Notes: generated by a model not told the origin, from the sequence alone. A DNA stretch of 64,000 nt from Candidatus Methanophagales archaeon (GCA_025966525.1 JAPDIG010000001.1:13435-77434), one strand, 5' to 3'. Shown: positions 2,879 to 28,068, counted from the first letter of the stretch. Translations and numbers: made by a program.

Positions 2879-3670
2879 TTACTCTCCTTTTAATTGTCTC
2901 TCTACCAGCATCTCAAACTTCTCCTTTTTCCTTTTTAAGTATATGTTTTTGCAATATCCACTATATATATACCTACATAGTGAAATCGAATCTCTCGTCC
3001 CAAACTTTAATAGCCATGTGTTTTTGTGTTTATGAATGCTTCCACCTTTAATTACTCCTTCATCACGTAATGTCTGTAATATATAATCAAGTATTTCATA
3101 ATCGTTCTGTCCAATACTTGCGTGAATCGAACCTCCTCGCGAATTATGATTTTCCTTATGCCAGTAAACGCTGCCTTCTGCTTCAAAAAAGCCTCTGAGC
3201 CAGTATTTGAAATATTGCCGTGGTACATCGCGATAATGTAGTCTTTTCAAATCTTTAACAAGTGTAATGGAATTAAACTGAATTCTTGACATTTCATGCC
3301 CATGAGACAAAAAATCATATACAGGATGTTCGGAATCTAATACATCTCTAAACTTAAACAATACTTCCTTATCAATTGCTGATAACCGAAAATGTAAATA
3401 ATCTTTACGTGTGAAATTACCATCTCCAATTGCCCATCCATACAACCAAGCACTCTCTGGTGTCCATGATTTAAAAAAGTCGTGATTGATGGAATATTGC
3501 CTTTTTACTTCACTGCTTAACCGAGGCTTGATATTATATTCTTTCATACGCTCCTGTATAGTTCTATGTGAAACTCCATAATAACTTGCTATCTCTCTCT
3601 CTGTCATCCCTTCTACATCATACATCCTACGCAAGTCATCTTCATCTATTCCTTCTATTCTTCTTCCCAT
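2879..3670 (-). CDS. LAGLIDADG-type homing-endonuclease-like protein with N-terminal HTH
   Basis: Two dodecapeptide-like motifs, LYGWAIGDGNF and LRGFFEAEGSV. The N-terminus, REIASYYGVSHRTIQERMKEY, is HTH-like. Confidence 0.5.
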   Translation of the reverse strand: MGRRIEGIDEDDLRRMYDVEGMTEREIASYYGVSHRTIQERMKEYNIKPRLSSEVKRQYSINHDFFKSWTPESAWLYGWAIGDGNFTRKDYLHFRLSAIDKEVLFKFRDVLDSEHPVYDFLSHGHEMSRIQFNSITLVKDLKRLHYRDVPRQYFKYWLRGFFEAEGSVYWHKENHNSRGGSIHASIGQNDYEILDYILQTLRDEGVIKGGSIHKHKNTWLLKFGTRDSISLCRYIYSGYCKNIYLKRKKEKFEMLVERQLKGE

Positions 3671-4569: not shown

Positions 4570-5472
4570 TCACTCGGGTCCCAATCCGCTTCTCACACGC
4601 TTCCACAAGTCCTCATCCTCTTCGCGCGCTATCATACCGAACAGCATCTCTATATACTTAGTCACACGGAACTCGCTGTATGTGAACCGGACATTATAGC
4701 CCGAAATAGCCTTGTTCGTTGTCAGCGATAACTTTATCACATCTTTCGCAACTATCCACAATGGTATGTCATAAGTCGCGCCCGATGCCGCCCACGCGCG
4801 CATGCTGTGGAAACTGCTCTCGTCAATGTTGATGTTCAGTGCAGTAGTATATGTCCCATCACTTGGCTTCTCCAGCGCTACCGATTCGAGCACCAGCATC
4901 TTGCCTACGGGCGAGTACACACTGCCCACATCCGCTCCCGCTGTCGGTAAATCGCCACGCCAGCTCACAGTCGCTGTTCGCGTCTTCTTAAATACGCGCT
5001 TGAGCATCGTGTCCATCGGCAGTGGCAGCGAGCCCTCATCCACGAGTCGCACCAAATCAAATTCCTCAGCAATCGCTTTCTCCTCCTCTGTCAATGGCAT
5101 CCCGTGCAGTATCTTGTCCGCTACGGTCGGGTTGAACAGCCAATACCCGTAACGATACGGATAGTTCGAGATAGTGGCTGCTGAACTGTTGTATAAGTTC
5201 AAATAGAACAATGTTCGGCAATGTAAGTCGAACTGCGCAGTATGATCGAGCGACATGGCGTTGGATTCTTCAATACTTCTTTCGTCATTCCTGATCCTTA
5301 CTCTTACATTCGCATTGGGATACACCGCTATCTCCTGCACACGCAACATCTTTCCCCGCAGCTCGCGGTCGCGTATCTCACTAACAACATTACCTCCAGA
5401 ACTCAAACTTTCTACTTCTGCCTCGGTGATAAAACACGGCAGATACCGCGCGTTGTCCAATACGAAGCTCAT
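4570..5472 (-). CDS. hypothetical protein, possibly structural
   Basis: 300-aa ORF at the head of the three-gene minus-strand run. No recognisable catalytic motif. Confidence 0.4.
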   Translation of the reverse strand: MSFVLDNARYLPCFITEAEVESLSSGGNVVSEIRDRELRGKMLRVQEIAVYPNANVRVRIRNDERSIEESNAMSLDHTAQFDLHCRTLFYLNLYNSSAATISNYPYRYGYWLFNPTVADKILHGMPLTEEEKAIAEEFDLVRLVDEGSLPLPMDTMLKRVFKKTRTATVSWRGDLPTAGADVGSVYSPVGKMLVLESVALEKPSDGTYTTALNINIDESSFHSMRAWAASGATYDIPLWIVAKDVIKLSLTTNKAISGYNVRFTYSEFRVTKYIEMLFGMIAREEDEDLWKRVRSGLGPE

Positions 5473-5954: not shown

Positions 5955-6355
5955 AAAAAATAAAAAGGTTTTTATGTAGCATAGTAGTAATTATAAATAC
6001 TATGCAATTGCTTGGGATAAGGGAGTGGATGAGGGAAATGCGCGAGAAGAGGATTGAAGTGGTAGACATCCCGCCGCGAATAAGGAACCACAATTATACA
6101 GAAACAAATAAGAGAAGGCTTGAAGAAAAATGAAAAAACTGCTCGCAACAATAACGGATGAGGCATACGAAGCGCTAAAAGCTTTTAAAGAAGAGAACGG
6201 ATTCGCCAATATTGACACCGCGCTTGATGAACTATTAAAGAGAAGAGGGAGAGAAAAAAATGGAAGAAGATAAAGAAAAAAAGGAAGGAGACGAATTCTT
6301 GTTCTATGCGATAACCTTATTGTATGGATACAAAATCTTTGCAGCCTAAGAAGCC

Positions 6356-7918
6356 ATGACAAAAAAACTTTCTTATGTTCTGATAGGGGACCCGATGGCA
6401 GTAGCGGGCACGCGAACGAAGAAAGAGCCTTTGCTTAGTGGGCTGTGGCTCTGGAGCGTTTCTTTTGACAGGTATGGCAAGCGTGGAGATGTGCGACTGA
6501 TAAGGAGCAAAGAAGACCTTGAAGAATACGACATTGTGCATATAAACCTGACCGCGGGCGATTTAGCGCTGCCGCTGATGATACGTGACGAATTAGGCAA
6601 ATCGTCATCAACGAAACTGATAGTGAATATGGACTTTGACCCTATGCTTTGGGGGCAGGTTTGGGATTATCCTAAGTTTGTGGAGAAAGCGCTACTGGCT
6701 GCGGATATGGTCTTCCAAGTAGATTCGATAGGTGCGAGATACATCGAGCGGATGATAAACCGCAAGGTGTATTGCCTGCCGCATCCGGTGGATGTGGATG
6801 GCTTAGATAAGTACAAAAAAATAGACCGTGAGCCTACCATTGTTACAATGTGGCATCGTTATATTCCCGATTGCACTACGGCATATTATGCACAGCGTGA
6901 TGTTCCCGCATTCAAAATTTTACTCGGCTATCGAGGAAAAGTGCACAACATAGGCATGTTCGATAAAGTCTTTGGTTACATTCCCTTCCTCAATGCGATA
7001 GAGATAATGAGCAGGGCAAAATTTGGGTACGATATGTACATGGGTTATAGTTATGGGCGTACAGTAGTTGAGTTTGCAGCACTCGCAGTGCCTTGCATTT
7101 GCTCAAACACGATAGAAGCTGCACGTAAGCTTTTCCCATCCACTTCGGTGCATCCATTAGACATCAAGAAACAACACGAACTGTTCTGGAAGTTAATAAA
7201 AGACGATGAGGAATACATACGGGTCTTCAAGTTTGCATACGATGCAGCGAAGGAGTATAAACTCAAGAACTCATACGAGAAGATGGTGAGTGCGATAGAA
7301 GAAGTAGAAGAGCGGCAGTCGCGGAGTGGTAGTGTGCATTTTTCAGACGAGTGGAAGCTGATTCAAGAGAGGTATGAGCGCAGGACGAACGAACCGAAAC
7401 CTCAAAACTATCTCCAATTCGCACGGGATTTGGCATGCCAGTTTAAAGAATGGGTAGGTGTGCAAGGCTTGGTATTAGACATCGGGTGCGGTAACGGCAA
7501 GTATGCAGGTGGCACTTACGAGTCTATGGGGCATGAATATCTAAGCAGGGAGAACCGGATTATCGGCTTAGACCCACTGAAGAGCTATGAGACGCGGTTT
7601 CCTGTCGTGCGCGCTTTTGGTGAGTACATACCTTTCCAAGACGATATCTTCGATGCTGTTACAATCGTCTCAACGCTTGACCACATAGAAGAGCCGATAG
7701 AAGTTTTGAAAGAAGCGAAGCGAGTTTTGAAAAAAGGCGGCAGAATATTCATTCAGAACTCTATACGCGAAGAAGGTATAAATCCGTGGCATCTGCATAC
7801 ATGGACAAAAGAGGAGCTAATAGAACTTGTAGATGAAGTATTCACGATAATTGACACGAAAGTGATTGAGAACAAGAAGATGGGAGATAACATCTTTATA
7901 AAGGGGATCAAAAAATGA
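6356..7918 (+). CDS. Fusion of a GT-B-fold (GT4-like) glycosyltransferase and a class I SAM-dependent methyltransferase
   Basis: Central GRTVVEFAALAVPCICSN resembles the GT4 donor-binding motif. The C-terminal VLDIGCGNGKYAGG matches methyltransferase motif I (GxGxG). Confidence 0.6.
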   Translation: MTKKLSYVLIGDPMAVAGTRTKKEPLLSGLWLWSVSFDRYGKRGDVRLIRSKEDLEEYDIVHINLTAGDLALPLMIRDELGKSSSTKLIVNMDFDPMLWGQVWDYPKFVEKALLAADMVFQVDSIGARYIERMINRKVYCLPHPVDVDGLDKYKKIDREPTIVTMWHRYIPDCTTAYYAQRDVPAFKILLGYRGKVHNIGMFDKVFGYIPFLNAIEIMSRAKFGYDMYMGYSYGRTVVEFAALAVPCICSNTIEAARKLFPSTSVHPLDIKKQHELFWKLIKDDEEYIRVFKFAYDAAKEYKLKNSYEKMVSAIEEVEERQSRSGSVHFSDEWKLIQERYERRTNEPKPQNYLQFARDLACQFKEWVGVQGLVLDIGCGNGKYAGGTYESMGHEYLSRENRIIGLDPLKSYETRFPVVRAFGEYIPFQDDIFDAVTIVSTLDHIEEPIEVLKEAKRVLKKGGRIFIQNSIREEGINPWHLHTWTKEELIELVDEVFTIIDTKVIENKKMGDNIFIKGIKK

Positions 7919-8862
7919 TTTTGTGCGTTGCACCGCTTGATAATGGGGGACAGTTGTATCACCTGTGTGAAGCGCTTAACAGATACACTAAGTATGATGC
8001 GCGATGCTTAACATTTACACAGACATATCTACAATACGATACTGATTTGCTACTTAGCGATTTTGACACATTGGCGAAGCAGTATGAGCTACGAGAATTA
8101 GTGTGTAGTGCAGACTTCTTCATTTTCTCTGAATTCTTGCCCACGGATCCAAACATTAAGCATGTATTGAAAGACCTAGGTATTTTAACGCATATAACAC
8201 CAAAGAACACGATAATACGAGTTGCAGGGTCGTATTCGCGCGCTAATGCAGAACACTATCTATTAGAATGGATCAAGCATGACTGGATATATGCGGGACC
8301 TTGTAGCGACTGGACACTTTCAGGTAGTATCGGCAGGATAATACATGTGAATTATATCTGTCCAGTGGAGAAGATACCGGAGCCGAACCCAACAGAAGAT
8401 ACGATACGGGTATGCTTTGCACCAACAAAATCGGCGAAAGGTTTAGACGAATTTAACAGTGTCATGCAGGGATTAGAGAACAAATACGACAATGTGGAGT
8501 CAGTAGTGATAACAAAGAAGCCGTGGAGAGAAGCAATTTCAATAAAATCTACATGCCACATAACTTTTGACCAGTTCATGTTGTCGCACTATGCAAACAA
8601 CAGTATAGAGTCTATGTACCTCAGACATGCCGTATTATCAAAGATATCAAGTTTGTGTTATGCATATTATCCTGATCTGCCAATTCAAGCTGTGAGAAAC
8701 GAAGAAGAGCTACGAAAAGGTTTAGAAACTTTAATAGAGAATCCAGAGCTAATAAAAGAGCTGGGAGAGGCGGGGAGAAAATTCGTTATGAAGTATCATC
8801 ATCCTGAAGTAGTCGCGAAACAATGGAAGAACTTGATAGAGCATGTTCTCAGAAAAGATTAA
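7915..8862 (+). CDS. Glycosyltransferase-like protein (GT-B C-terminal-domain-like)
   Basis: Its start overlaps the stop of the upstream GT/MTase gene (ATGA). C-terminal ELGEAGRKFVMKYH resembles GT-B C-terminal helices. The assignment is weak. Confidence 0.4.
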   Translation: MILCVAPLDNGGQLYHLCEALNRYTKYDARCLTFTQTYLQYDTDLLLSDFDTLAKQYELRELVCSADFFIFSEFLPTDPNIKHVLKDLGILTHITPKNTIIRVAGSYSRANAEHYLLEWIKHDWIYAGPCSDWTLSGSIGRIIHVNYICPVEKIPEPNPTEDTIRVCFAPTKSAKGLDEFNSVMQGLENKYDNVESVVITKKPWREAISIKSTCHITFDQFMLSHYANNSIESMYLRHAVLSKISSLCYAYYPDLPIQAVRNEEELRKGLETLIENPELIKELGEAGRKFVMKYHHPEVVAKQWKNLIEHVLRKD

Positions 8863-9661
8863 AACAATAGGGATAATAGGAAAAGGAACAGTAGGAACAG
8901 CAGTAGGTGAAGGGTTAAAATCGTTCGGTTATGAAATACTCTATCACGATAAATACAAAGAGTCATACCCGCTAAAAACGGTTGTTGAAAGAAGTGATAT
9001 AATCTTTGTCTGTGTCCCTACGCCGTGTAAAGCGAATGGCGAAATTGACTTATCTATAATTGACGAAGTAGTAGAGAACATATCCAAATATGCTGAAAAT
9101 GAGCAGAAAATCATAATCAAATCAACAGTAATACCCACAACAACTGAGCACTATCAAGAGAAATATCCACATCTCGTGTTCTTCATGTGTCCAGAATTTC
9201 TCGATGAGGATACCGCAAAATACGACTTTCTTCATCCGTTTGTGATTATTATCGGCTATACAACAAAGTCAGAAGAATATGTTGAGGACTTGATCCCTGT
9301 TTTCAAAAAATTTCGTGTACCGATTCACACTATGCACGCTACTGAAGCCGAAATGGTTAAATATATGACTAATTCATTCTTCGTGCTTAAAGTTGTCTTC
9401 GCAAATCAGATTTATGACTTGTGCACTATGCTCGGTATTGACTACTACCGCGTGAAGGATAGCTTTGTATCAAATCCGCGAGTTGGTGATAGTCATTTTA
9501 TCGTTGAGCATAAAGGTGGGAGGGGAGCAGGTGGTAAATGTTTACCAAAGGATTTATCTGCATTTATACAGTTTGCGAAGCGTAAAAACTGCCAGCTTAC
9601 ACTACTTGAAACTGCCGAGAAGATCAACTCAAAATTATTAAAACAAACAGGAAAATGTTGA
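8843..9661 (+). CDS. UDP-glucose/GDP-mannose dehydrogenase-family protein (short form)
   Basis: N-terminal Rossmann motif IGIIGKGTVGTAVG and the catalytic-cysteine motif GGKCLPKD (GGxCxPKD). At 272 aa it is shorter than canonical UgdH. Confidence 0.6.
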   Translation: MFSEKIKTIGIIGKGTVGTAVGEGLKSFGYEILYHDKYKESYPLKTVVERSDIIFVCVPTPCKANGEIDLSIIDEVVENISKYAENEQKIIIKSTVIPTTTEHYQEKYPHLVFFMCPEFLDEDTAKYDFLHPFVIIIGYTTKSEEYVEDLIPVFKKFRVPIHTMHATEAEMVKYMTNSFFVLKVVFANQIYDLCTMLGIDYYRVKDSFVSNPRVGDSHFIVEHKGGRGAGGKCLPKDLSAFIQFAKRKNCQLTLLETAEKINSKLLKQTGKC

Positions 9662-11307
9662 TTTTAGGAATCCACGACGGACACAACGCAACTGCCGCGC
9701 TTCTTAAAGATGGTGAAATAATAGCAGCCATCTCAGAAGAACGTTTGACTCGCAGAAAGAACGAACCGGGCTATCCTGTAAGGGCAATCAATAAAGTCTT
9801 AGAAATAACAGGATCTACACCTGCGGATATAGACTATGTTGCTTTAGCATCTGAGTTCTTACATCCAAAGGAGTTTTACATGGATTGGAACTGGTATAAG
9901 CGCGGCTATGAAGAAGAGCTATATGAAAAAGCAGATACAGAAGTATTTGAGCAATACAAAAACAAACGATTGGAAGAACGAAAAGAGACGATAATAGACC
10001 ATCTTGGAGTAGCAAAAGATATAATCATAGTCGTTGAACACCACTTGGCACATGCTTCTGCTGCATACTTCGGGTATGGCAAAAAGGGATGTTTAGTATT
10101 AACCCTTGACGGTTCCGGTGACGGTATCTGTGCAACCGTGAACAGAGGCTTGAACCGAATAGCGGAAACGCCTAATAGCGCCTCGATTGGTAAAATTTAC
10201 TCGCGTGTGACTTATCTACTCGGCATGAAACCCTGGGAACACGAATACAAGCTGATGGGATTAGCGCCTTATGCGAGCGAAGATGGCGTTAAGAAGTCGT
10301 ATCAGGTGCTTAAAAAACTGATAAGGGTAGATAATGGCTCTTTAGTCTTCAGGAATAACGGGCTATCTACGAATTTTTGCTACCAGTATTTGCGGAAATA
10401 TCTAGAGAACCATCGTTTTGATCATATTGCTGGTGCTGTACAGAAGCTAACTGAGGATGTCGTCTTGAATTGGGTAAGAAATGCAATGAACCACACGAGT
10501 GAGCGAGAAATAGCATGCGGTGGCGGCGTATTTATGAATGTGAAACTCAATATGCTACTTTGCGATATCGTAGATAACCTTTTTATTTTTCCAAGTTGTG
10601 GCGACGAATCTTTAGCTATCGGCGCGGCTTATTATGTCTATTACAAACACGAGAACAGAATGCCAAAGCCTTTTAATAATATCTATCTAGGACCCGAGTA
10701 CACACAAGAAGAAGTTAGCTCCTTTTGTGAGCAACTCAAGGACTATAATGTCTATAAGAGTGCGAATATCAACAAAGAAATTGCGGATTTGCTTAGCGAC
10801 GGCGAGATAGTAGCAAGGTTCAATGGGCGAATGGAGTGGGGTGCGCGAGCTCTGGGGAACAGGAGCATACTTGCGAACCCCTCAGACCTGAACAAAGTTA
10901 AGGAATTGAACATCATGATCAAAGCGCGCGACTTCTGGATGCCTTTTGCACCCACAATATTGCACGAACGGCAGCATGACTATATACTTAACGAGAAAGA
11001 AATAGAATCACCGTACATGATGGTTGCATTTAGAACAACGAAGCGTGCGAGAAAAGAGCTGGCTGCCGCTGTTCATCCTTATGATTATACTGCACGACCT
11101 CAAATTTTGAAGAGAAAAAGCAACCCGGACTATTATGACTTAATAAAGGAATTCGAGAAGATTACCGGTATCGGTGCGGTGCTAAATACTTCATTTAACC
11201 TGCATGGCGAACCGATAGTGTGTAGCTTAGAGGACGCTTTTTATACTTTCATGCGTTCGGGCTTGCAGTTCTTAGCTGTTGGTGGTTATCTAATAGAAAA
11301 AAGATAA
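9655..11307 (+). CDS. Carbamoyltransferase (NodU/CmcH family)
   Basis: N-terminal MLILGIHDGHNATAALLKDGEIIAAISEERLTRRKN and EHHLAHASAAYFGYG are hallmark motifs of the family. Length 550 aa. Confidence 0.75.
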   Translation: MLILGIHDGHNATAALLKDGEIIAAISEERLTRRKNEPGYPVRAINKVLEITGSTPADIDYVALASEFLHPKEFYMDWNWYKRGYEEELYEKADTEVFEQYKNKRLEERKETIIDHLGVAKDIIIVVEHHLAHASAAYFGYGKKGCLVLTLDGSGDGICATVNRGLNRIAETPNSASIGKIYSRVTYLLGMKPWEHEYKLMGLAPYASEDGVKKSYQVLKKLIRVDNGSLVFRNNGLSTNFCYQYLRKYLENHRFDHIAGAVQKLTEDVVLNWVRNAMNHTSEREIACGGGVFMNVKLNMLLCDIVDNLFIFPSCGDESLAIGAAYYVYYKHENRMPKPFNNIYLGPEYTQEEVSSFCEQLKDYNVYKSANINKEIADLLSDGEIVARFNGRMEWGARALGNRSILANPSDLNKVKELNIMIKARDFWMPFAPTILHERQHDYILNEKEIESPYMMVAFRTTKRARKELAAAVHPYDYTARPQILKRKSNPDYYDLIKEFEKITGIGAVLNTSFNLHGEPIVCSLEDAFYTFMRSGLQFLAVGGYLIEKR

Positions 11308-11335
11308 CTAAAAGCCGGAGAGCAAGCTGGCTCGC

Positions 11336-11581
11336 TTATGGACGAGCCAGCTCACCAACGGCTTGGTAATGCAATTTCAGCACATTGTACTTCACTGCTT
11401 GCCTGTTGATTTGTACGCCATCGGGGTCGTATCTTCGTATCTTCACCTCGAGTAATCCGTCAGCACCTTGCAGGAACTGCGTCGTTGGTATCACAGCAAT
11501 GGGCGGGAAACCTGTCGGTAACGGTATTATGCTCGTGCTCGCAGCCCATGTCGTCTCTATTATGATGTCACACTGTTTCAT
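11336..11581 (-). CDS. hypothetical protein (paralogue of 11596..11907)
   Basis: C-terminal YQAVGELARP parallels YRAVGELVRT of the neighbouring gene. Confidence 0.35.
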   Translation of the reverse strand: MKQCDIIIETTWAASTSIIPLPTGFPPIAVIPTTQFLQGADGLLEVKIRRYDPDGVQINRQAVKYNVLKLHYQAVGELARP

Positions 11582-11595
11582 TTCTTATCCTCTTT

Positions 11596-11907
11596 TTATG
11601 TTCTGACTAACTCGCCAACCGCACGGTACTTAACGACCAACACTGCACCAGCTCCTATATCCTTATCAGCTTTTTTGAGGTTGAAACTACGAGCTGTGTA
11701 TGCCGATGGCACATCAGGGATATGTGGAGCAGCGCCTACTGTTGAAGCATACAGTATTGCCGGCCCCATGGATGCACTTGTCGTTGTAGGCATCCACGCT
11801 ATATCTGGATATCCAGCAGGTATCACAAACGGACCGCCAGTAGTCGGGGTTAATTTTGCAGTAGTTGCACCTACTTTCGTTGGTACCCGTATATATGCCT
11901 CTTTCAT
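11596..11907 (-). CDS. hypothetical protein (paralogue of 11336..11581)
   Basis: C-terminus shared with the downstream ORF. Gly/Ala/Thr/Pro-rich. Confidence 0.35.
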   Translation of the reverse strand: MKEAYIRVPTKVGATTAKLTPTTGGPFVIPAGYPDIAWMPTTTSASMGPAILYASTVGAAPHIPDVPSAYTARSFNLKKADKDIGAGAVLVVKYRAVGELVRT

Positions 11908-11927
11908 TTTTTATCTCACCTCCTCAC

Positions 11928-13046
11928 TCATGGCAAGTTCACTTTTATGCCCTGTAAGCACGCTATTATCCCCGCCGTCGGTATATTACCGTCATCAGCC
12001 GAGATTGCTGTCCCGTCATCGTATATAACCACTCTGCCCTTCTCGTTGTGTATCAGATACCCCATCGGTAGCAACGGCATTGGCACAAACAGCGGGAAGT
12101 TCTGCGGGAACAGTGGATAGCCGTGCCCGAAATGCAGTGGGTTGTTGTTGTAATCCACCCTGAACAGCTTCTCATCGCCCGCACTTCTCGGATACTCCCT
12201 GTCTCCTATCTTCAGTCCCATATACTTCAGGTGCGTATGCGACCTGACACCTATACCCTTTATGAACAGCGCTTCTGAAGTGCCATAGTCGAAATACAGG
12301 TTCTCCCAGTCGTTCGCTACATCGCCATCGCTATAATTGAAATCGAATGGTGTATTCGCCGTCGTTGCTACTTTGTTGTAAGCGTAGCGAATCATCGGCA
12401 TGATCTCAGGCTTTGACTGCTTCACACCGCCTACAAACATGTCCCAGTTCTTTATGCTCACATCTATCGCATCCTTTGTTACGCTCAGACTCTTACCCCT
12501 GTTGCGGTCCTCAATTGTCGCCTCTGCACCGTACACTGTATCGCCAAACACTGACCTCAGCATCGCCTCGCCCTTATACAAACGCCCCCACACACGTATC
12601 CGATAGTCTTCGGTAATGTCTGAGCTACCCGCAAAAGTCCGTATCGATATTGTCTTCTTCGCCTTCAATGTCGTGTTAAGGAACGGGTCCTCGATACCGG
12701 GCGTACCAAAGCTGAAGACTGCACGAGTCGTTTGCAATGGTGCAGGGCCACTCATCTGGCTTATCCGCGGTGGCGCCATGTTCGATGTGTATCGCCCGGA
12801 CAGGCTAACATACTCCTCGATCGCCGCGCCATCTATCACCGGTATCACCTGCTTGAGGTCTTCTCCCGGCCAGCCCGCATTCGGACTGAATATCTCTATA
12901 TACTCGATCTCTGCAACTTCATCGCTCTCAAGCCGCTTCGCTGTGAAGTCGTATCTATCGCCCGCAGACTGCGTCCCCGTATGCTCGAAATCCGCTAACA
13001 GCGTCGGCTGCAAAAGGTTCCCTACCGCTCCTATCTCTTCTGCCAT
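11928..13046 (-). CDS. hypothetical protein, possibly structural (capsid or envelope-like)
   Basis: 372-aa ORF with a strong AT-rich promoter-like region immediately upstream (13050-13150). No enzymatic motif. Confidence 0.4.
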   Translation of the reverse strand: MAEEIGAVGNLLQPTLLADFEHTGTQSAGDRYDFTAKRLESDEVAEIEYIEIFSPNAGWPGEDLKQVIPVIDGAAIEEYVSLSGRYTSNMAPPRISQMSGPAPLQTTRAVFSFGTPGIEDPFLNTTLKAKKTISIRTFAGSSDITEDYRIRVWGRLYKGEAMLRSVFGDTVYGAEATIEDRNRGKSLSVTKDAIDVSIKNWDMFVGGVKQSKPEIMPMIRYAYNKVATTANTPFDFNYSDGDVANDWENLYFDYGTSEALFIKGIGVRSHTHLKYMGLKIGDREYPRSAGDEKLFRVDYNNNPLHFGHGYPLFPQNFPLFVPMPLLPMGYLIHNEKGRVVIYDDGTAISADDGNIPTAGIIACLQGIKVNLP

Positions 13047-18506: not shown

Positions 18507-20160
18507 GTGAACTACCCACCTACAAGTAGGTGGGCTTCCATCTTCATCCAAGGTTCCAGCCCGGAATCATCGATGGTTCGGGCGAGTTCATCTATCGCCC
18601 CCGCCAGCTTCCGACTCCGCTTCAGAGCCGCTCTGGTCTTGTGCTTCAGATAGGTACTTGCCTTCTGAACCACTCTCACACAGGAGTTGAATTCCCGGTC
18701 GTATTGCATACCGCAGTTCGTGCACACCACGCGCCTGCCTTTCGCCTTTAATTTACCGCCACATTTGTGACATTCGCTTGAGGTGCCCCATTCGTTGAAC
18801 CGTATACCGATTATACCCCGCTCCTTTAACTTCTCTATTATGGTGTCCGCCAGCCTGCTGTAGCTCCAGTGCTGTAATATCTTCCTGCCTCGTTTATCGC
18901 CGTCGCCGCGATACTTGTGGTATCGTATCTGTTGCGGGTCGCCAATGACCACTATCTCATTCTCCGTCCCTGCGGCAAACTCTTTCGCGAGCTTACGGTC
19001 GTAATCTTCCGCCACATGCCTTCGCTTGTGCCTCAGCTTCTTCAATACGTTCCACTTCCTCAATCTTTGCAGGTGCGCTATGCGGTCATCCAACTCCCGG
19101 ATCCTCAACCACTTATCGTCGTATCGCAGCAGAGAGAAGTTTCGCGGGTGCTTCGGTAGCTTCACGGAAGCTATCGCACGTCTAACACCCAAGTCCACTC
19201 CTCTTACTGCGTGAACTGGTTGAGCGCGAACAAAATATTTACAGAGCAGATGCACGAAATACTTCTTACCGCGTTTGATTAGTTCAAACCCGCGCAGTTC
19301 CGCCGCACGCGCGAGCATTTCAAGATGCCATTTTGAGGGGTTGAGCAGTATTGTCAGCTTCTCACCCCTTTTTAAGGTTGAGATACGTATGACCAGTGGT
19401 GAGATTTTCAGATTTGATACCTCAATCGTGCCGGTTCGCGTGTCAAATCGCGTGGGTATCTTCTTCAAACTGCTCTTAGGTGATGTGCACGGCTCCGCCG
19501 GCTCACGCTTCAATAACTTCTTATACCACTTCGTGCCGGGTTTCGCGCGGCTCAGTTCACGCTCCCAGTCCTTATGCGCCTCACGATACTGCGCCCACAT
19601 CCATAGCGCCTTGTCTCGCGCCTGCTGTACGAACGCGGCACTCAACCCCGTGATGTGCTGTATCTCGCGCTCGTAAGGCGAGCAGTCCCGCTGAGTTTTC
19701 AGCCCCAGTTCGGATATGCGCTCGCACCACACCCGGACGGCGTAAGTCAGCCGCGCGGTGAGCCTGTCGAGATAGCTGAGCTTCTTGCCAGTGGTGGCGT
19801 AGTGCACCGGAATTTTGAGTGCGCGCAGGAGCTCGAAGAGTATCTTCTCCCCCGCTTCTTCCATCACCTGCACGGTTGGCTCGCCCACGACACCTGAGCA
19901 GCAATATTTTCCTCTCATGGCGACGTATATTTAATATATATTTTAGTATTTAAATATTTAATGTTGGGTATGGAGCACGAATTGACCTCTCATGGCGACT
20001 CCTCCATACCCAACCACGCTATTAAAGTATCATGCTCGATGACTGAGGCGCATTCATCACACCGTCAAGAGGTGTGTCTTCTGCGCTTTAAATCTATAAA
20101 TATTAAAATTGGTATGGCGGTTGCGAATTTAAGCATCTACACACACCCTGCCATACCATA
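18507..20160 (-). mobile_element. IS200/IS605-family insertion sequence, tnpB-only (IS1341-like); no tnpA present
   Basis: RE is ...gatggaagcccacctacttgtaggtgggtagttca at 18507-18540. LE has the hairpin cacaccgtcaagaggtgtg at about 20070-20100 and a long hairpin ggtatggc...gccatacc at 20111-20157. A single tnpB gene lies between them. Confidence 0.7.
18512..19918 (-). CDS. tnpB: TnpB (IS200/IS605 OrfB; RuvC-like RNA-guided nuclease family)
   Basis: RuvC-I-like GVDLGV, zinc finger CHKCGG...CTNCG, and a RuvC-III-like YDREFNS. Its 3' end lies inside the RE. Confidence 0.8.
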   Translation of the reverse strand: MRGKYCCSGVVGEPTVQVMEEAGEKILFELLRALKIPVHYATTGKKLSYLDRLTARLTYAVRVWCERISELGLKTQRDCSPYEREIQHITGLSAAFVQQARDKALWMWAQYREAHKDWERELSRAKPGTKWYKKLLKREPAEPCTSPKSSLKKIPTRFDTRTGTIEVSNLKISPLVIRISTLKRGEKLTILLNPSKWHLEMLARAAELRGFELIKRGKKYFVHLLCKYFVRAQPVHAVRGVDLGVRRAIASVKLPKHPRNFSLLRYDDKWLRIRELDDRIAHLQRLRKWNVLKKLRHKRRHVAEDYDRKLAKEFAAGTENEIVVIGDPQQIRYHKYRGDGDKRGRKILQHWSYSRLADTIIEKLKERGIIGIRFNEWGTSSECHKCGGKLKAKGRRVVCTNCGMQYDREFNSCVRVVQKASTYLKHKTRAALKRSRKLAGAIDELARTIDDSGLEPWMKMEAHLLVGG

Positions 20161-20196: not shown

Positions 20197-23100
20197 TCAG
20201 TCAAGAACCGTTATCGAAGCGCCTTTGGGTTCAGACTCGAATGTGACGGTTTTTGTTACTGCTCCTTTCTTCAGATACGCTTTTACTATGAAGTTACGGC
20301 AATATAACCCGTGTGCGGGCATTGAAGGTTCAGTGCCATAGCATGAAGCACCCGTTGATATGGCAGCCTCGCATGAGATACCCGAATCCGACACGGAGAT
20401 AACCATTTCTAATGTTTCATGCCCGCTAGCAACGGCTTTTATATAATGCCTGCCGTATGGGATGAGCTCGCCCGTCGCTATCTCCTTATATGTGGCGCCG
20501 GCAATATCATAAGGCTTGTAATAGAATGTTGCACTGATATAAGAACCGTCGGTGCCTGAATATGCCGATAAGTATATATATGCAGCCTTACACACTTTCA
20601 CAACCGTTGTTTCGTTTGCTTTCACATCCACAGAGAACGCACATGATGGTGAGAAGCAACGGTCAAGTATATCCACATAGCAATGATTGAATTCGCCTTC
20701 CTTACCTACTACCTCTACCGTATGTGGACCTGCGGGCACTGTCGCTGTTACTGCCGAGCCACCACCTTTATCAACACCGTCAATAAGGAAAGTTTCAACA
20801 TCACACGGCTTCTTAAACACGATTGACTCGAAAGTCATTATGGTTAGTTTGCCCTCAGGTGGCGGCGTTGTCACTACTTTAGCGGTGATTTTATGCGTTG
20901 CTGTCCCACAATTTGGCGGAGTTGCATTGTTACACGCTTCCAGGCGAATACCCCATACTCCAACCTTGTCAAAAGTATGAGTTATCGTCTTACCTGTCTT
21001 TTCGGTTTCAATACCGTCAGGGTCACTAATCGTCCATGTCCACGAAGTGACTTTATATGGGTCTTCGGTAGACGCCATGCCGATTAGGGTTGCCGACTCG
21101 CCGACGTTGACGGTGTTGGGAGCGATAATCCTTACATTTTTCACCGCTGGTGGCGCACCTGGACATACGGGGAAAGTATCTCTACCGGTATCCGAACCAG
21201 CATAATAAGCATAGATCATGTCAGCATCGTTACTTGTCACTTCACCATCGTCATCAACATCCGCCCGCTCCTTGAATTCCGACTCCGATAATCCTCCTAC
21301 TTTATCTTTAACGGCACCCCAGCCGAGTTCTACATAATCCATAACGAGTTTTGCATCCTCGTCTGTAACATAATTATCGGGGTCGTTGTTAACATTACCG
21401 TAGTTACCGCAGGGCGATTTTCTGTATTCGTACGCTTTTGAGACAGTAATTGTCCTGTGCACATCGATTGTTCCCGCACAGATTTTGAGATGTACCTCGT
21501 AACTGCCGGCTTCTGTGAATGTGTGTGTAACCACCCGTCCAGTCTTTTTGACATCGTGCGGGAACACCCATTCCCAATCAGTTATTTCTGAATCGTCACA
21601 GCCTTTTGCATGACCTTCAAAAGTCGCTTCTACACCTACTCGCACGCTTTCACGTGCTCCTGAATAATAATTGAACCATGCTCCCGTTGCCGGACATGGC
21701 TTTCTCCACTTGGGGTCCCATATCCTTGTCTTTTTAAGTCTTGCTGAGTTCTCAGCATTAACATATTCATCTTTTATCTTGTTATTGGTAGCATCCCAAA
21801 CATGTTTATTTTTATCATAGACGAATAGAACGGCATAACCTTCCTTCAGCTCTTCTATGCCAATATTTGTTGTACCTTTAAAAACAGCAGCTATCAAGCG
21901 AGGAGTTTTGTGTTTTAAGTCCCATTGTCTCTCGCTGTCGGACTTCAATGTAATATTTGTGCCGACAGGAAGCATATTAGCAAGCCATGCATTCGCTCGA
22001 GCATAAAACACGCTATCAACATACCAGAGTTCCTCGGATATACATTCCTCGCCGGGTGTTACTAACCGCCTGACAAGCCACGGCTCCTTCTTCTTCGTGC
22101 ATATATAAACATAGTCTGGTCCTTCTGGACTGTTTATACCTACAATGCGTACGCAATATGGCGTACCAGCATGCCGAATATGTATAGTATCGGCATCTTT
22201 GTGCTTAAGCACAGTTGCTGTTATCACTTCATTTAATTCTGGCACATAAACATCTGGTGGCCATCCTCCCGGCGGCTCTAGTGGTGCTATACAGCCTGCG
22301 CTTCGAACAGCAAAGGTATATTCATTACGATATACTGACCATGCTGTACGCACTTGATTACGCATGAATTCGTTTGGTTCACCTATCGAAACGCCATACA
22401 ATGTTGCATACAAGTTTATTGCCTCATTACGCTTGGTAGGATCAACAGCGTCAGCAATGTTCTTAAGTCTTTCTAACTCTTCAAGCATGGCTATATAATC
22501 ACGCTGAACTGTGGGGTCACAGGGGTTGTCTCGTATTTGGAATCCCAATGTCTTTAGCTTATCCTCTACAATCGCAAACTGCTCGCCAAAAGTTTTCTCG
22601 ATAACTCCTGCTTTACGCCCCACATAAACATTCATCACTAAATTGTCTAAAATATACCAAGTGCCACAGAACGCAGCAAAGCCTAATGCACCTGCAAGTA
22701 TTGGATGTTTCTTAATCTTAGCAAGGAGCCCTTTTTCTAGTTGCTTGCCAGTCTTTATTGCACCTGTAGCAAATCCTCTTGCTATGTCTATTTGAGCACT
22801 TAAAGCGGTCTTTGCTAGTTCATTCGCTATCTCCTCACTAGCTCCTGTGGCGATAGCGCGTTCGTATATATCGTCATACATAGCTTTTCCGTATAGCCAG
22901 AACAATCTATTCAATTCAGCAGTCTCTTCTATTGAGTCCAGTCCCAACGCATTGAAAACTTCTTCACCGCGTTTATCGCCAAGAACTTTTTTAAACTCCT
23001 CACGCAAGTTCTTGAACCAGTTCCTTCTTTCCGTTGCCTCCTCTGGAGTGAGTGGTTTAATATGCTTAGCAATTTCATCTGGATCATCAAAATGCTCAAA

Positions 23101-26100
23101 CTTTTTCATCAAAGCGTTAGAGTATCCCTTTTTAAAGAATTCGGGGTCTTTTAGTATCACATATCTAAATAATTCGCTTGGGTCCGCATATCTACCCTCT
23201 TTGTCTAGTTTCCTAGCAATCTTATCTATCGTGCCAGCATCTAACAGCTTTTTCAACTCATCAGTAGTTAACACATCAGAAATGTCTTTCGGTGCTTTAC
23301 GCCAAGGCATCCTGTTCTTTATACCTGCCCATATACTTCTCCAGAAGTCGTGTCCAAACCCAGAACCGGCAGCAGACTTGTTTGTTAGCTCTTTCCAAAA
23401 ACCTAGCAGGCTGTTTCTATGCTTTAAAAGTACTTCAAAAGTTTTTTTATCCGCAGGTAGTCCAGCTAGGTACTCAAAATACCCTAAAACTTCTTTATTC
23501 TTACCGGCAGCGAGTAGTTCGTTTATTTGCTTAACATCTTCAGGTTTCATGGCAGCTATTGCCATGAAAGTCTTTTTATATCCTTTTTTCGTTGTATCTA
23601 GCGTGAAACCCGCGTCGTATAACGCTTTTGTAAATTCAAACAAGTCTAATGTTTCACCATCTATTATTAGTTTTCCATCTTCTGCCAACCCTACTATCTG
23701 GTTTAGCTTGCACCAATGGCCTGGGCTACAAACGGCATCTGCCGCCTTTATGAACACTGTTATATTTTTTGTTCTATCACCATACCGCAATGTGTAGATA
23801 TACGCGGGATATGCCTCGTCTAATAGTCTTGCGTACGCATCAGGCCAATCGTGAAGCCTCTCTAAAGCATTACGATATGCTGAATACGCCCCTGTCCCCT
23901 CATACATAGCTTCGAGTCGTTCAAGATCAAAATACGCTAGTGCATCGTCGATCTCTTCTGCGAAATCTTCAACATTTCGTGCTGTTACCGTGCCTATATT
24001 CCATACATCATCAAGCATACCAGCGGCAACATCTAAATCACCATTTCTTAAATAAGATATATACTCGTCTTTCAAATCGTCAGATGCCACGCGCCAAAAA
24101 TACCAGAATTTTTCTTCACTGAACGCATCACGAACGATTTGCTTGATCTCCTCGTCAGCATAAGCGGCAATTTCACTAAACATCAGCCCAGTCTCCGAAA
24201 AGTCACCAACACGGTGTGCTCTATTAAAAGCCGTTATTATTAATCCATATTCGTCTACGGTAGGCTCAGCTATATTGCCAGCTATATCCTTACCATATTT
24301 AACCTTTTGGTATGCATCGAAAAAAGTACCATACGCTTCTGCTCTCTTCGCAAGCTCGAATGCGCCATCCCAATTGTTATACAACACATTTGCTAATCTT
24401 TTTGCGTTTCCATACCGTATATCGGCATAACCAATTTCAGCAAGCACTGACCTTGCAGTATCCTTTATGGCTTTTTCCAGATCAGCAATCTCTTTCGCCT
24501 GCTTAGGATCAATATTCTTAATCTGCTTCTCAAGCTCATCCAGCCACCGATTGAACTTATTTATCGCTTCCCAATCTTCAATTGCAGGATTTCTAAGGAT
24601 GGCTTCTCCCAATTCTTTAGCTCTTTCTATGTCACCATCAGCAATCGCTTTCGCCCATAAATCCAATTTCGCTTCGTCGCCATACACCAGTATTCTATAA
24701 GCCTCTGTTGGATTTGCCTCTATGAATTCTCTAACCGCAGCAACATCATCACCGTGCTTAACGCCCTTCCTTATGATTTTGCCCAGATATTTCGTTATCT
24801 TACCGCCCGGTACCATCGGTAATACTGAACACACCACAACTATCGGGAACATAGCGAGCTCGAACGCATCGGGATGGTACTCTGCACCGTATATGTCCTT
24901 ACCCCTGATAACCCCAGAAATCACATCTGCACAATATATCGGGTCCAGCATCTCTGCCCAGAATCGGCGGCACTCGTCTGAATCCTTTGGTATGCCCATG
25001 AGCTCACAAGCTTCACCAAAGACTCCATAACGAGAGTAAAGATATATGTCTTTCGTACCCTCAAACTTGCCGCACCAGACAGGACCGGTAGGTAAAAATC
25101 CTTTTGCTATATTCGGTCCTATACCATAGGTTTCTCCTTCTACTAGCCCATCATCTTTTGTAAATACTACCTCACCATCCGGGTATTTATCCGGCTTTTT
25201 TTCGTGTATATCCGTCCCCGGCGCTGGTATAAAACATCGTGACCACGCATATGCACGCCTGCATAGCACTGTATCCCCTTCTTTAAACCCTTTCGTGTGT
25301 ACAATAAACTTATCCTCCTCCGTGATTGGTCTAAGCGTGAACTCGAACTCATAAGTGCCTTCTCCTTCGCCATTCCCGCCCTGACGCCGCGTTGTCTTGA
25401 CTTCTGTCCAATCCTCATGCATATCACTATTCAAATACCCCGGCTTGCCCGCTATGAATCCGTATCTACAAGCCGCTCCGGGCAGTGATGGCAACCCTAT
25501 GCTAAGGACGCCTTCATCATCGGTCTTGAGAAGGTTACCATAGCCTTTCCAGCTCTCGGTAGTGCATACCCCTTTATGTACCGTTATGTCAGAGCAGGGT
25601 ACTTCCTGCCATGTGCCTTCAAAAATCTCTTTCGTAACGCTTACATACGCATGTTCTATACCATTCCCTTCCTCGTCCTTTACTGTTGTCCTTATTTCGT
25701 ATGGCGATTGCGCTTGCGTTTCAAAATCAAACTCATCATCAGACGGGCAGCCCTGTATAATCTGTCCGTCTTTGATATGGAAGCTATAATCTTTACCATA
25801 ATCCATATCAACATTGCAATCCAAAAGGAACTGTTCGGATTCATCTGTACCCAATGTTATAGAACTAGTTTCGATACCTATTGTATTCTCGGTACTGCAG
25901 CCTTTACCCTCGCGCAGCCACAGACAGCGCTTATCCGAAGCACCACCCATGTTCTTTATTATTATCTTGAACAGTGGGCGTTTGCAATCGCCTAAGTCTA
26001 TTGTACCACCTTCCGTAACGCCCCAAAAGGTTATACCATTGTCCGTGCTATAATACACTTCTTTAATCTCAAGCTTGGGTGGGGGTGTTGTCACAGTTAT

Positions 26101-27111
26101 CGTAAAAGTGCATTCAGACTCTTTATAATCAGCATCACCCTTAAACTTCGCCTTAATCGTTGCCGTCTCCTCTACACTGCATGTATATGTGATAGAACAC
26201 TTACCTTCGGGATTCGTAGCACACGAACCTATGCTGACTTCTGTGCTATCCACTAACTTATAGAACTCTATCCACCTGCCATCAAGCGGTCTTTTCGGTG
26301 ATATTGCATCTGTCAAAAGCACTTCTAAATCTACCGTATCGCCAACAGTGGCAGTCTTATGTGGATCTATGCATGTCAGTTCTGTATACGCCTTTGGTAG
26401 CTGAACCCTAAGATGAATAGCATCCGTCGTGTCGTGAGTATAACATGTCCCACCCTCGTATGAACCACAATGTAATACTGCATCTTTGTCTGATGAGGGC
26501 ATACTGAAAGTGCAATCCGGCATACGCACCCACGATTTACCTGCATCTATATCTTTCGTCTTCGGACCACAACGATAATAGTTGCCCCATACAACACCGT
26601 AGCAGGCTGTGCCTGATACATTATTTGTGTTCCTCACCCACGCTCTTGCGGTCAGCGTAGCACCAGCTGGCGCTCTAAGTGTAGAGCCAGGCTTATACAC
26701 ATGGCCGTTGTACCATATATACGCATAATTAAATTTGTATTCTGGTAGTGGCTTACCTATTTCGATAGTCCACGAATATTTCGTTTCCTTGAGCTCGCCT
26801 TGTCTATCAGGATCACCTAACCACAGCTCCACTTTTGCCGTGCCTGATTTGCTCGGTGTGCATCCGATTGCTGGTAATTTCTTTGTCTGGTCTTTGCACG
26901 GTACTGTATCGAACCGTCTGCAAACTTCTGTCGAGTCTATCAGTAGCCGGACTGTTACACTTATTTGGCTAACCTTTGTGTATGTGCACCGGACTTTTGC
27001 ATGTAGCCAAAAAGTTTCGCCAGCGGTAACTGTGATCGTACTTCCTAAGTTATATCGCTTGCCCCCGTAATAGATATATGGGTCCTCATCGAATTTTACC
27101 GTTCCAGGCAT
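20197..27111 (-). CDS. Giant (2304 aa) multi-domain cell-surface protein with Ig-like/PKD domains, a dockerin-type Ca-binding repeat and an embedded staphylococcal-nuclease-like (SNase) domain
   Basis: SNase motifs HKDADTIHIRHAGTPYCVRIVGINSPE and DLKHKTPRLIAAVFKGTTNIGIEELKEGYAVLF. PKD-like WEWVFPHD...THTFTEAGSYEVHLKI. Dockerin-like DVDDDGEVTSNDADMIYAYYAG. Two hydrophobic segments, and a long Lys/Glu/Ala-rich helical middle region. Confidence 0.65.
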   Translation of the reverse strand: MPGTVKFDEDPYIYYGGKRYNLGSTITVTAGETFWLHAKVRCTYTKVSQISVTVRLLIDSTEVCRRFDTVPCKDQTKKLPAIGCTPSKSGTAKVELWLGDPDRQGELKETKYSWTIEIGKPLPEYKFNYAYIWYNGHVYKPGSTLRAPAGATLTARAWVRNTNNVSGTACYGVVWGNYYRCGPKTKDIDAGKSWVRMPDCTFSMPSSDKDAVLHCGSYEGGTCYTHDTTDAIHLRVQLPKAYTELTCIDPHKTATVGDTVDLEVLLTDAISPKRPLDGRWIEFYKLVDSTEVSIGSCATNPEGKCSITYTCSVEETATIKAKFKGDADYKESECTFTITVTTPPPKLEIKEVYYSTDNGITFWGVTEGGTIDLGDCKRPLFKIIIKNMGGASDKRCLWLREGKGCSTENTIGIETSSITLGTDESEQFLLDCNVDMDYGKDYSFHIKDGQIIQGCPSDDEFDFETQAQSPYEIRTTVKDEEGNGIEHAYVSVTKEIFEGTWQEVPCSDITVHKGVCTTESWKGYGNLLKTDDEGVLSIGLPSLPGAACRYGFIAGKPGYLNSDMHEDWTEVKTTRRQGGNGEGEGTYEFEFTLRPITEEDKFIVHTKGFKEGDTVLCRRAYAWSRCFIPAPGTDIHEKKPDKYPDGEVVFTKDDGLVEGETYGIGPNIAKGFLPTGPVWCGKFEGTKDIYLYSRYGVFGEACELMGIPKDSDECRRFWAEMLDPIYCADVISGVIRGKDIYGAEYHPDAFELAMFPIVVVCSVLPMVPGGKITKYLGKIIRKGVKHGDDVAAVREFIEANPTEAYRILVYGDEAKLDLWAKAIADGDIERAKELGEAILRNPAIEDWEAINKFNRWLDELEKQIKNIDPKQAKEIADLEKAIKDTARSVLAEIGYADIRYGNAKRLANVLYNNWDGAFELAKRAEAYGTFFDAYQKVKYGKDIAGNIAEPTVDEYGLIITAFNRAHRVGDFSETGLMFSEIAAYADEEIKQIVRDAFSEEKFWYFWRVASDDLKDEYISYLRNGDLDVAAGMLDDVWNIGTVTARNVEDFAEEIDDALAYFDLERLEAMYEGTGAYSAYRNALERLHDWPDAYARLLDEAYPAYIYTLRYGDRTKNITVFIKAADAVCSPGHWCKLNQIVGLAEDGKLIIDGETLDLFEFTKALYDAGFTLDTTKKGYKKTFMAIAAMKPEDVKQINELLAAGKNKEVLGYFEYLAGLPADKKTFEVLLKHRNSLLGFWKELTNKSAAGSGFGHDFWRSIWAGIKNRMPWRKAPKDISDVLTTDELKKLLDAGTIDKIARKLDKEGRYADPSELFRYVILKDPEFFKKGYSNALMKKFEHFDDPDEIAKHIKPLTPEEATERRNWFKNLREEFKKVLGDKRGEEVFNALGLDSIEETAELNRLFWLYGKAMYDDIYERAIATGASEEIANELAKTALSAQIDIARGFATGAIKTGKQLEKGLLAKIKKHPILAGALGFAAFCGTWYILDNLVMNVYVGRKAGVIEKTFGEQFAIVEDKLKTLGFQIRDNPCDPTVQRDYIAMLEELERLKNIADAVDPTKRNEAINLYATLYGVSIGEPNEFMRNQVRTAWSVYRNEYTFAVRSAGCIAPLEPPGGWPPDVYVPELNEVITATVLKHKDADTIHIRHAGTPYCVRIVGINSPEGPDYVYICTKKKEPWLVRRLVTPGEECISEELWYVDSVFYARANAWLANMLPVGTNITLKSDSERQWDLKHKTPRLIAAVFKGTTNIGIEELKEGYAVLFVYDKNKHVWDATNNKIKDEYVNAENSARLKKTRIWDPKWRKPCPATGAWFNYYSGARESVRVGVEATFEGHAKGCDDSEITDWEWVFPHDVKKTGRVVTHTFTEAGSYEVHLKICAGTIDVHRTITVSKAYEYRKSPCGNYGNVNNDPDNYVTDEDAKLVMDYVELGWGAVKDKVGGLSESEFKERADVDDDGEVTSNDADMIYAYYAGSDTGRDTFPVCPGAPPAVKNVRIIAPNTVNVGESATLIGMASTEDPYKVTSWTWTISDPDGIETEKTGKTITHTFDKVGVWGIRLEACNNATPPNCGTATHKITAKVVTTPPPEGKLTIMTFESIVFKKPCDVETFLIDGVDKGGGSAVTATVPAGPHTVEVVGKEGEFNHCYVDILDRCFSPSCAFSVDVKANETTVVKVCKAAYIYLSAYSGTDGSYISATFYYKPYDIAGATYKEIATGELIPYGRHYIKAVASGHETLEMVISVSDSGISCEAAISTGASCYGTEPSMPAHGLYCRNFIVKAYLKKGAVTKTVTFESEPKGASITVLD

Positions 27112-27114
27112 CTC

Positions 27115-28050: not shown

Positions 28051-28068
28051 AAGCGTGCACTATTTATT

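Follow-up and report, generated by a model that had tools for sequence, protein, structure and literature searches.

A candidate variable glycan island, with paired divergent glycosyltransferases and a short sugar dehydrogenase, on a virus-like element from anoxic sediment

A 64,000-nucleotide (nt) stretch of DNA assigned to Candidatus Methanophagales archaeon (GCA_025966525.1 JAPDIG010000001.1:13435-77434), hereafter the window, carries at positions 6356-11307 of its plus strand a compact cassette of four open reading frames (ORFs), of 520, 315, 272 and 550 amino acids (aa), that encode predicted sugar-modifying enzymes. We think it reasonably probable that an uncultivated virus-like element has its variable glycan island here, and that the product is a short glycan, methylated, carbamoylated and containing uronic acid, on a target exposed at a surface. 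The enzyme classes of the cassette are themselves ordinary; what sets it apart from known systems is the carrier, the unassigned GT-B families of its glycosyltransferases, the short form of UDP-glucose dehydrogenase (UGDH) that it encodes, and its organisation as core and periphery at a single site.

ORF1 (6356-7918) joins an N-terminal module, GT1 (6356-7330), predicted to be a divergent glycosyltransferase (GT) of the GT-B fold, to a C-terminal class I S-adenosylmethionine (SAM)-dependent methyltransferase (MT) module (7376-7918). It is followed by ORF2 (7915-8862; GT2), by prediction a second divergent GT-B fold glycosyltransferase; ORF3 (8843-9661; sUGDH), a short enzyme of the nucleotide-sugar 6-dehydrogenase family; and ORF4 (9655-11307; CarbT), a predicted ATP- and carbamoyl-phosphate-dependent O-carbamoyltransferase of the TobZ/NovN/GdmN/NodU-CmcH family. 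Successive ORFs overlap by 4, 20 and 7 nt, a layout typical of a co-translated operon, and the four co-oriented, overlapping genes lie on the strand and at the coordinates given in a first-pass annotation of the window. The cassette is transcribed divergently from the minus-strand gene blocks that flank it on both sides. First in the plus-strand block is a 47-aa ORF (6130-6273) that looks ribbon-helix-helix-like; it may, on that appearance alone, be a regulator, and an ORF of 48-51 aa occupies the equivalent position in relatives. A scan for sigma-70 promoters and terminators gave counts no higher than in shuffled sequences, and an Rfam scan within the cassette returned no match. Membrane segments are absent from all four enzymes, and no flippase, polymerase, initiating phosphoglycosyltransferase or oligosaccharyltransferase was found among the island genes; soluble enzymes without these components fit direct cytoplasmic glycosylation.

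We compared 22 loci from seep, vent and subseafloor metagenomes, classifying their ORFs with purpose-built profiles. Nineteen of these have the GT1-GT2 pair, and the remaining three have GT2; in at least one of the three (L033) the position of GT1 lies off the end of the contig. The island occupies a fixed site in relatives, bounded on the left by the conserved gene p300 (4570-5472, minus strand), homologs of which hold the same position in L001, L011, L012, L017, L018, L019 and L040, and on the right by a block of putative virion-module genes (11336-13046, minus strand) comprising p81 (11336-11581), p100 (11596-11907) and p372 (11928-13046), which stands beside the island in at least 15 loci. 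Among the 22 loci there are at least nine configurations of accessory genes, drawn from sUGDH, CarbT, SDR, GFO/Idh/MocA (GFO), DegT, hexapeptide acetyltransferase, NTP-transferase, PIG-L, ATP-grasp, FemAB-like and free MT types. The order seen in the window (GT1-MT, GT2, sUGDH, CarbT) recurs in L010 and L014, and in L021 up to sUGDH, after which that contig ends; L022-L024 have the same four genes with a GT1 that carries no MT, and L001 has an SDR between sUGDH and CarbT. Elsewhere the order is GT1, GFO, GT2, SDR, CarbT (L017); GT1-MT, GT2, PIG-L, ATP-grasp, SDR (L012); SDR, GT1, GT2, FemAB-like, MT, DegT (L019); or GT1, SDR, GT2, hexapeptide acetyltransferase, DegT (L027-L029). L011 has a GT1 with two MT domains, then sUGDH, NTP-transferase, SDR and two copies of GT2, followed by an acetyltransferase, GFO and DegT. 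A larger version is present in L034 and L040, with GFO and NTP-transferase genes in L040 only, and the minimal form, GT1 and GT2 only, in L038. The two GTs are a constant core and the tailoring genes a variable periphery at a single site, with mosaicism that extends to the level of domains.

The island is also AT-richer than its flanks: GC content at third codon positions (GC3) is 0.35-0.50 inside, against ~0.60-0.62 for p300 and p372, the latter (~0.62) being the only right-flank gene for which GC3 was measured. The lowest island gene is sUGDH, at 0.374 GC. Searches of 50,697 phage records with the cassette and p372 (blastn, tblastn) found no match; scanning IMG/VR with ORF1 found nothing, and with the ORF2 profile a single locus, 25% identical. 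Among the papers returned by a literature search on archaeal-virus glycosylation, none has a title or abstract that deals with such a cassette.

Residues 374-466 of ORF1 score above cutoff against models of class I SAM methyltransferases (Methyltransf_11, 2.6e-13), and the module has the Rossmann-like MT fold and glycine-rich motif I (VLDIGCGNG) of that class; residues 1-340 have no Pfam match at E<=0.1. An AlphaFold2 model built with 48 homologs (mean predicted local distance difference test score, pLDDT, 85, and >90 over the N-module) consists of two well-folded domains linked by helices. The first-pass annotation had read ORF1 as a GT-methyltransferase fusion, open to the objection that a sequencing frameshift had joined two genes. 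That objection did not hold. More than 20 protein clusters (36-95% identity, mostly 52-57%) have the same fusion, GT1 occurs as a stand-alone protein of ~317-349 aa in relatives, and forms with two MT domains (720-776 aa) also exist. In L024, the DNA of which is 88% identical to the window on both sides, ~544 nt of the window (7325-7869 by blastn) are represented by 31 nt; the difference is in frame, the C-terminal residues NIFI..KK are kept, and the segment that is absent encodes exactly the MT domain. Between L021 and the window, the GT1 module has many substitutions and the MT domain very few, a contrast read by eye from the alignment, with no identities computed. Given the clean MT indel in L024, the mosaic in L021 and the recurrence of the architecture across clusters, the ORF1 fusion is real, modular and recombining, and not a frameshift artefact.

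The glycosyltransferases are more difficult to place. The ORF2 model (pLDDT 95.8) has a GT-B fold (BshA 22.5, PimA 22.1), in agreement with the first-pass description of a second GT-like protein, and the two-Rossmann arrangement of that fold is predicted for both cassette GTs. No significant match to Glycos_transf_1 (PF00534/PF13692) was found for the ORF1 N-module or ORF2; the only Pfam match to ORF2 is PF13524 (Glyco_trans_1_2), at 20.4 bits and below its cutoff of 25, and NCBIfam matches are weak (E>=0.0085). Identity to any solved GT is 8-17%, and both families are small, with 69 clusters for GT1 and 55 for GT2. In each family only the second acidic residue of the EX7E motif of the C-terminal domain is conserved, E239 in ORF1 (E or D in 48 of 48) and an invariant E232 in ORF2; eight residues upstream of E239 ORF1 has Tyr or Arg, and a D-x12-E spacing is common to the two families. 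The GT-B fold of the label 'GT4' thus stands in the models, while the family half, which would call for a Glycos_transf_1 match and an EX7E motif, does not: 'GT4' is here a fold-level description and not demonstrated family membership. In contrast to retaining GT-B enzymes of the GT4 type (BshA, PimA and WlaC/PglH-like proteins), neither cassette GT has the first Glu of EX7E or matches Glycos_transf_1 significantly. We also considered whether GT1 and GT2 might be recent paralogs and rejected it, since BLASTP finds no similarity between the ORF1 N-module and ORF2 and the profile-profile link is weak (hhalign, 68% probability, donor-binding region only).

ORF3 presents a different situation, in that its family is clear and its form is not the textbook one. 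It matches UDPG_MGDP_dh_N (PF03721, 2.8e-23) and the central domain PF00984 (2.7e-22), scores 180.9 against TIGR03026 (E 3.5e-53), just under the cutoff of 189.8, and has as its best Protein Data Bank (PDB) relatives only UDP-glucose or GDP-mannose dehydrogenases, so that the UgdH-family identity first assigned to it stands and no other Rossmann family need be invoked. Likewise upheld is the observation that the protein retains GGKCLPKD, with the catalytic Cys at 233, and has no C-terminal domain of the usual kind. No match to the UDP-binding domain PF03720 was found in ORF3 or any neighbouring ORF; the chain ends with residue 272, just past the central domain, and relative to 3vtf it is also missing ~30 aa of the N-domain (PF03721 profile positions 1-66 are partly covered). 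Canonical UDP-glucose, GDP-mannose and UDP-ManNAc 6-dehydrogenases (PF03721, PF00984, PF03720; 3vtf, 1mfz, 1dli) share with ORF3 the NAD-binding and central domains and the catalytic motifs, and differ in having the whole C-terminal domain and those N-domain residues.

The first-pass annotation called this dehydrogenase truncated, which is misleading, because a short length is the norm in a large family: the 120 best homologs are 256-301 aa long (median 273), and a HMMER search of 1.84 billion representatives gave 493 clusters at E<=1e-30, nearly all of 245-300 aa. All 30 solved relatives, on the other hand, have at least 393 aa, and there is no solved structure for the short family among the PDB relatives. 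The predicted key residues of ORF3 are G11-x-G13-x-x-G16 (in the NAD-binding motif GIIGKGTVG), D36, T95, E118, K173, N177, and C233 and D237, both within GGKCLPKD. Conservation of at least 90% in the 120 homologs extends to G.G.VG, VPTP, IKST (Thr), PEFL (Glu), AE..KY..N (Lys and Asn) and G.CLPKD (Cys and Asp), the residues in brackets being those that the motifs contribute. In two homologs (P0302, P0340) an intein with a LAGLIDADG domain sits exactly at the catalytic Cys (GGK|intein|C[FL]PKD); inteins tend towards strongly constrained sites. On lengths and motifs, ORF3 is a member of a conserved short family, not a truncation.

The short dehydrogenase looks functional and linked to nucleotide-sugar metabolism, the link being drawn from natural fusions and glycan-locus neighbourhoods. 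It occurs fused to NTP_transferase (sugar-1-phosphate nucleotidyltransferase), SDR epimerase/dehydratase, GT2 and APS kinase domains. In a Parcubacteria genome it lies beside an SDR, among GT4 and PMT genes; in L001 it adjoins an SDR; and in L011 its neighbours are an SDR, an NTP-transferase and three genes resembling WbpB, WbpE and WbpD (respectively a GFO-Idh-MocA oxidoreductase, a DegT aminotransferase and a hexapeptide acetyltransferase). The family is mostly cellular, being widespread in Patescibacteria as well as in these elements. An exact-sequence look-up of ORF3 gave no record, and we found no description of this form in the literature on short or truncated UGDH. A further copy is found on another, distinct contig that looks viral and is rich in small ORFan genes (L004, JGI 3300021580, 46 kb), where a short-form UGDH is followed by a Methyltransf_21 gene (10001-11508); the short dehydrogenase has thus been acquired by more than one mobile-element lineage.

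The assignment of ORF4 as an O-carbamoyltransferase is solid as a prediction. Both Carbam_trans_N (PF02543, 1.2e-33, 117.4 bits) and Carbam_trans_C (PF16861, 1.1e-61, 207.8 bits) match above cutoff and at full length, and the closest PDB matches are NovN (1.4e-69), GdmN (2.7e-61) and TobZ (2.2e-59). Its HHLAHA and DGSGD(G) motifs align with NovN over residues 10-550, corresponding to a Kae1-like N-domain and YrdC-like C-domain with the metal-site motifs HxxxH and DGxGD. The NodU/CmcH family named in the first-pass annotation is therefore the right one, and ORF4 is not a NodU ortholog, scoring 111.5 bits against a cutoff of 1000 for the NodU equivalog NF041651. It resembles TobZ, NovN, GdmN and NodU-CmcH proteins in both full-length domains and in conserved metal and nucleotide motifs; characterised members of this family tailor antibiotics or Nod factors, whereas ORF4 lies in a putative viral glycan island.

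We hypothesize that GT1 and GT2 act in sequence to add two sugars from nucleotide-sugar donors to an acceptor accessible from the cytoplasm. The short dehydrogenase would convert a host NDP-hexose to an NDP-hexuronic acid by oxidation at C6, using NAD+ and the Cys-thioester mechanism typical of UGDH enzymes, and the fused methyltransferase would O-methylate the sugar installed by GT1. By analogy with TobZ, ORF4 would convert carbamoyl phosphate and ATP to carbamoyl-AMP and then O-carbamoylate a sugar hydroxyl. Lineage-specific tailoring enzymes would in this way set the chemistry of a glycan built on the GT1/GT2 core. The favoured target is the set of virion proteins encoded beside the island, on grounds of position. 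The proposed glycan chemistry is a reasonable reading of these domains. What the analysis establishes is the identity of domains and folds, the conserved catalytic motifs, the operon-like layout, the fixed site and the constant core with its variable periphery; substrates, order of reactions, acceptor and host, and the viral nature of the element as against another kind of mobile element, are what we infer.

The window is probably a mobile element, most likely a virus. Its ORFs are mostly ORFans, with no housekeeping genes and no tRNAs found, and it encodes a beta-helix protein with matches to PHROG tail-fibre families (725-2869), a minus-strand primase-polymerase/D5-type helicase (50202-52664), of a type common to viruses and plasmids, and, on the minus strand within 20197-28893, a protein of 2304 aa that combines PKD, Big, dockerin-like and SNase-like domains. 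Matches of the primase-helicase to phage records are distant and taxonomically uninformative. Related contigs of 54-91 kb have the same architecture and mostly ORFan genes; one in a Pescadero Basin (Auka) metagenome-assembled genome (MAG) is 99% identical to the window, and a 54% relative was binned in the Guaymas anaerobic methanotroph (ANME-1a) MAG B64_G16. The element comes from anoxic seep or hydrothermal sediment, and binning and environment suggest a host that is probably archaeal and possibly ANME-1. The first-pass statement that the cassette sits among putative structural genes is borne out in part: 725-2869 has its tail-fibre matches, and the immediate neighbours are structural-like by conservation and position only. 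Proteins with Thr-Pro linkers, which that annotation had placed around the cassette, are ~32 kb away (43546-45938, minus strand), and their link to it is weak; the only ORFs in the window with long (TP)n linkers are 43546-44394 and 44397-45938, both on the minus strand.

It is important to note that a number of observations weigh against a virion-glycan island. The canonical EX7E motif is absent from both GTs, leaving donor, stereochemistry and even transferase activity putative. In all solved relatives of ORF3 the UDP moiety is bound by a domain that ORF3 does not have, so its substrate could be something other than a nucleotide sugar, and some members of its family occur in non-glycan contexts, for example beside an NAD kinase. 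Oxidation at C6 and 6-O-carbamoylation exclude one another on a single carbon, which would put the carbamoyl group on another hydroxyl or another residue. Neither p300 (against Pfam, PHROG and PDB) nor the right-flank block (against Pfam, PHROG, the phage database and PDB) has any match, and no capsid (HK97 or double-jelly-roll, DJR), portal or terminase was recognised in scans of the window ORFs; with no such genes and no solved homologs for the flanking ones, 'virus' and 'virion glycosylation' are interpretations.

The main rival to a virion target is that the island acts on glycans of the host surface (S-layer, or lipid-linked N- or O-glycans), remodelling them during infection or carriage and blocking superinfection or the adsorption of competitors as serotype-converting phages do. 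We regard this as a genuine, if minor, possibility. A hypervariable content around a constant core is what would be expected of an arms race over receptors or antigens, soluble enzymes could use lipid-linked precursors at the cytoplasmic face, and the cassette is divergent from the structural blocks with a small regulator-like ORF in front of it. However, conserved structural-like genes enclose the island in each of the relatives, and it has no membrane-embedded component of the GtrA/GtrB/Gtr(type) kind and no flippase.

It is improbable, in our view, that the element is no virus but a plasmid, or a genomic island integrated in some sediment archaeon or bacterium, and the cassette an ordinary cluster for cell-envelope polysaccharide or S-layer glycosylation. 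Such an origin would agree with the want of recognisable capsid, portal and terminase genes, with copies in MAG-binned contigs, with multiple TnpB and homing-endonuclease genes, and with the mostly cellular distribution of the short dehydrogenase, for example in Patescibacteria. It would have to accommodate 64 kb without housekeeping genes, the tail-fibre matches and a giant adhesin-like protein, a set of related, mostly ORFan contigs of like architecture, a primase-polymerase/D5 helicase of the sort typical of viruses and plasmids, and the absence of Wzx/Wzy/AglB-type genes. T4 alpha- and beta-glucosyltransferases glycosylate modified DNA bases, and a corresponding role here, in hypermodification of the element's own DNA, was considered and rejected as very unlikely: no dCMP/dUMP hydroxymethylase, thymidylate-synthase-like or base-kinase gene is among the scanned window ORFs, and the accessory genes of relatives (DegT, acetyltransferases, PIG-L deacetylase, ATP-grasp, SDRs) are typical of O-antigen-like glycans. 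Finally, we give practically no credence to the idea that ORF3 is an inactive relic of a once full-length UGDH gone to decay, and the joining of GT to MT an assembly or frameshift artefact, a reading that could appeal to the missing UDP-binding domain and the near-miss to TIGR03026 and that was rejected on the normality of the short length in a large motif-conserving family, the inteins that target its catalytic Cys, identical architecture in relatives at 99%, 88% and 67%, and the recurrence of the fusion with MT as a clean in-frame module.

The preferred reading, a glycan island directed at the virion, has partial precedents. The chlorovirus PBCV-1 protein A064R has two GT domains and a methyltransferase domain, and Megavirinae carry clade-specific glycan gene clusters; as in those giant-virus systems, the island has its own soluble GTs, a GT-methyltransferase fusion, unusual nucleotide-sugar genes and a content that varies among lineages. 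The alignment to a CroV protein (E3T531) spans the GT as well as the MT module of ORF1, and the structural matches to the cassette GTs include GTs of archaeal viruses, matches in BFVD being at 9-17% identity except for the top one at 26%. Host realm and virus type set the system apart from those of giant viruses, the carrier here being an uncharacterised, probably archaeal element of ~55-90 kb from anoxic sediment; the GTs are unrelated in sequence, and the island, confined to a single site, combines an unchanging GT pair with a short UGDH and a carbamoyltransferase. Bacterial O-antigen and capsule loci and archaeal agl clusters contain a similar mix of GT, SDR, DegT, acetyltransferase, UGDH and methyl- or carbamoyl-tailoring genes, and share with the island strain-level swaps of tailoring genes between conserved flanks. 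It differs from these in having no initiating phosphoglycosyltransferase, flippase, polymerase or oligosaccharyltransferase, in its soluble enzymes, and in being borne on a mobile element among structural-like genes.

Glycans are a main interface of virus-host recognition, and to our knowledge nothing is known of how virions or host surfaces are glycosylated where the viruses are uncultivated ones of ANME-1 or other sediment archaea. The main text of the ANME-1 virome paper makes no mention of glycosylation. If our reading is right, this family of elements keeps a dedicated, rapidly reshuffled island of sugar chemistry at one site, a viral counterpart of O-antigen diversification. Separately, a textbook enzyme, UGDH, proves to have a short form, large as a family and uncharacterised, that lacks the domain thought necessary for substrate binding. 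It is tempting to speculate, and we hold it to be a rather doubtful proposition, that the short family oxidises C6 of a hexose not bound to a nucleotide (for example, a sugar already on a glycan, protein or lipid), or relies on an SDR, nucleotidyltransferase or GT as a partner that holds the nucleotide, and that the island, with its GT pair, is a diversity-generating virion-glycan system in archaeal viruses. A non-nucleotide substrate or partner dependence would amount to a new mode of uronic-acid formation, and interest in the island would grow if the mechanism of the short dehydrogenase differs from that of canonical UGDH, or if diversification of virion glycans proves true. Candidates for heterologous reconstitution are the two core GTs, the tailoring enzymes, and p81, p100 and p372 beside the island.

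Several other features of the element were noted. The right-flank genes p81 and p100 are paralogs (cross-match 6e-06), both ending in ..Y(Q/R)AVGEL(A/V)R, and each is present in 0-2 copies among related loci, adjoining the glycan island. Directly beside the 2304-aa adhesin-like protein, a weak GT2-like gene (27115-28050) and a class I methyltransferase gene (28069-28893, minus strand) may be a second glycosylation-related pair. The load of selfish elements is heavy for 64 kb, with three minus-strand TnpB/Cas12f-like (OrfB_IS605 and TNB) genes (18512-19918, 36164-37366, 48832-49962) and two minus-strand LAGLIDADG homing-endonuclease-like genes (2879-3670, 61937-62920). A minus-strand Ro60/TROVE and vWA gene (39297-41012) has immediately 5' of it a tRNA-like element (41054-41109, minus strand; Rfam tRNA 26 bits, gathering threshold 29, E 0.032). 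Bacterial Ro60 partners (Y RNAs of the YrlA type) contain a tRNA-like module, and the two could by analogy be a Y-RNA/Ro60 pair on a virus-like element. The only Rfam match at gathering threshold in the window is an HgcC RNA (RF00062, a family of archaeal hyperthermophile RNA) at 50037-50139 on the plus strand (60.9 bits against 50, E 2.3e-11), which lies between the third TnpB gene and the primase-helicase, antisense to both.

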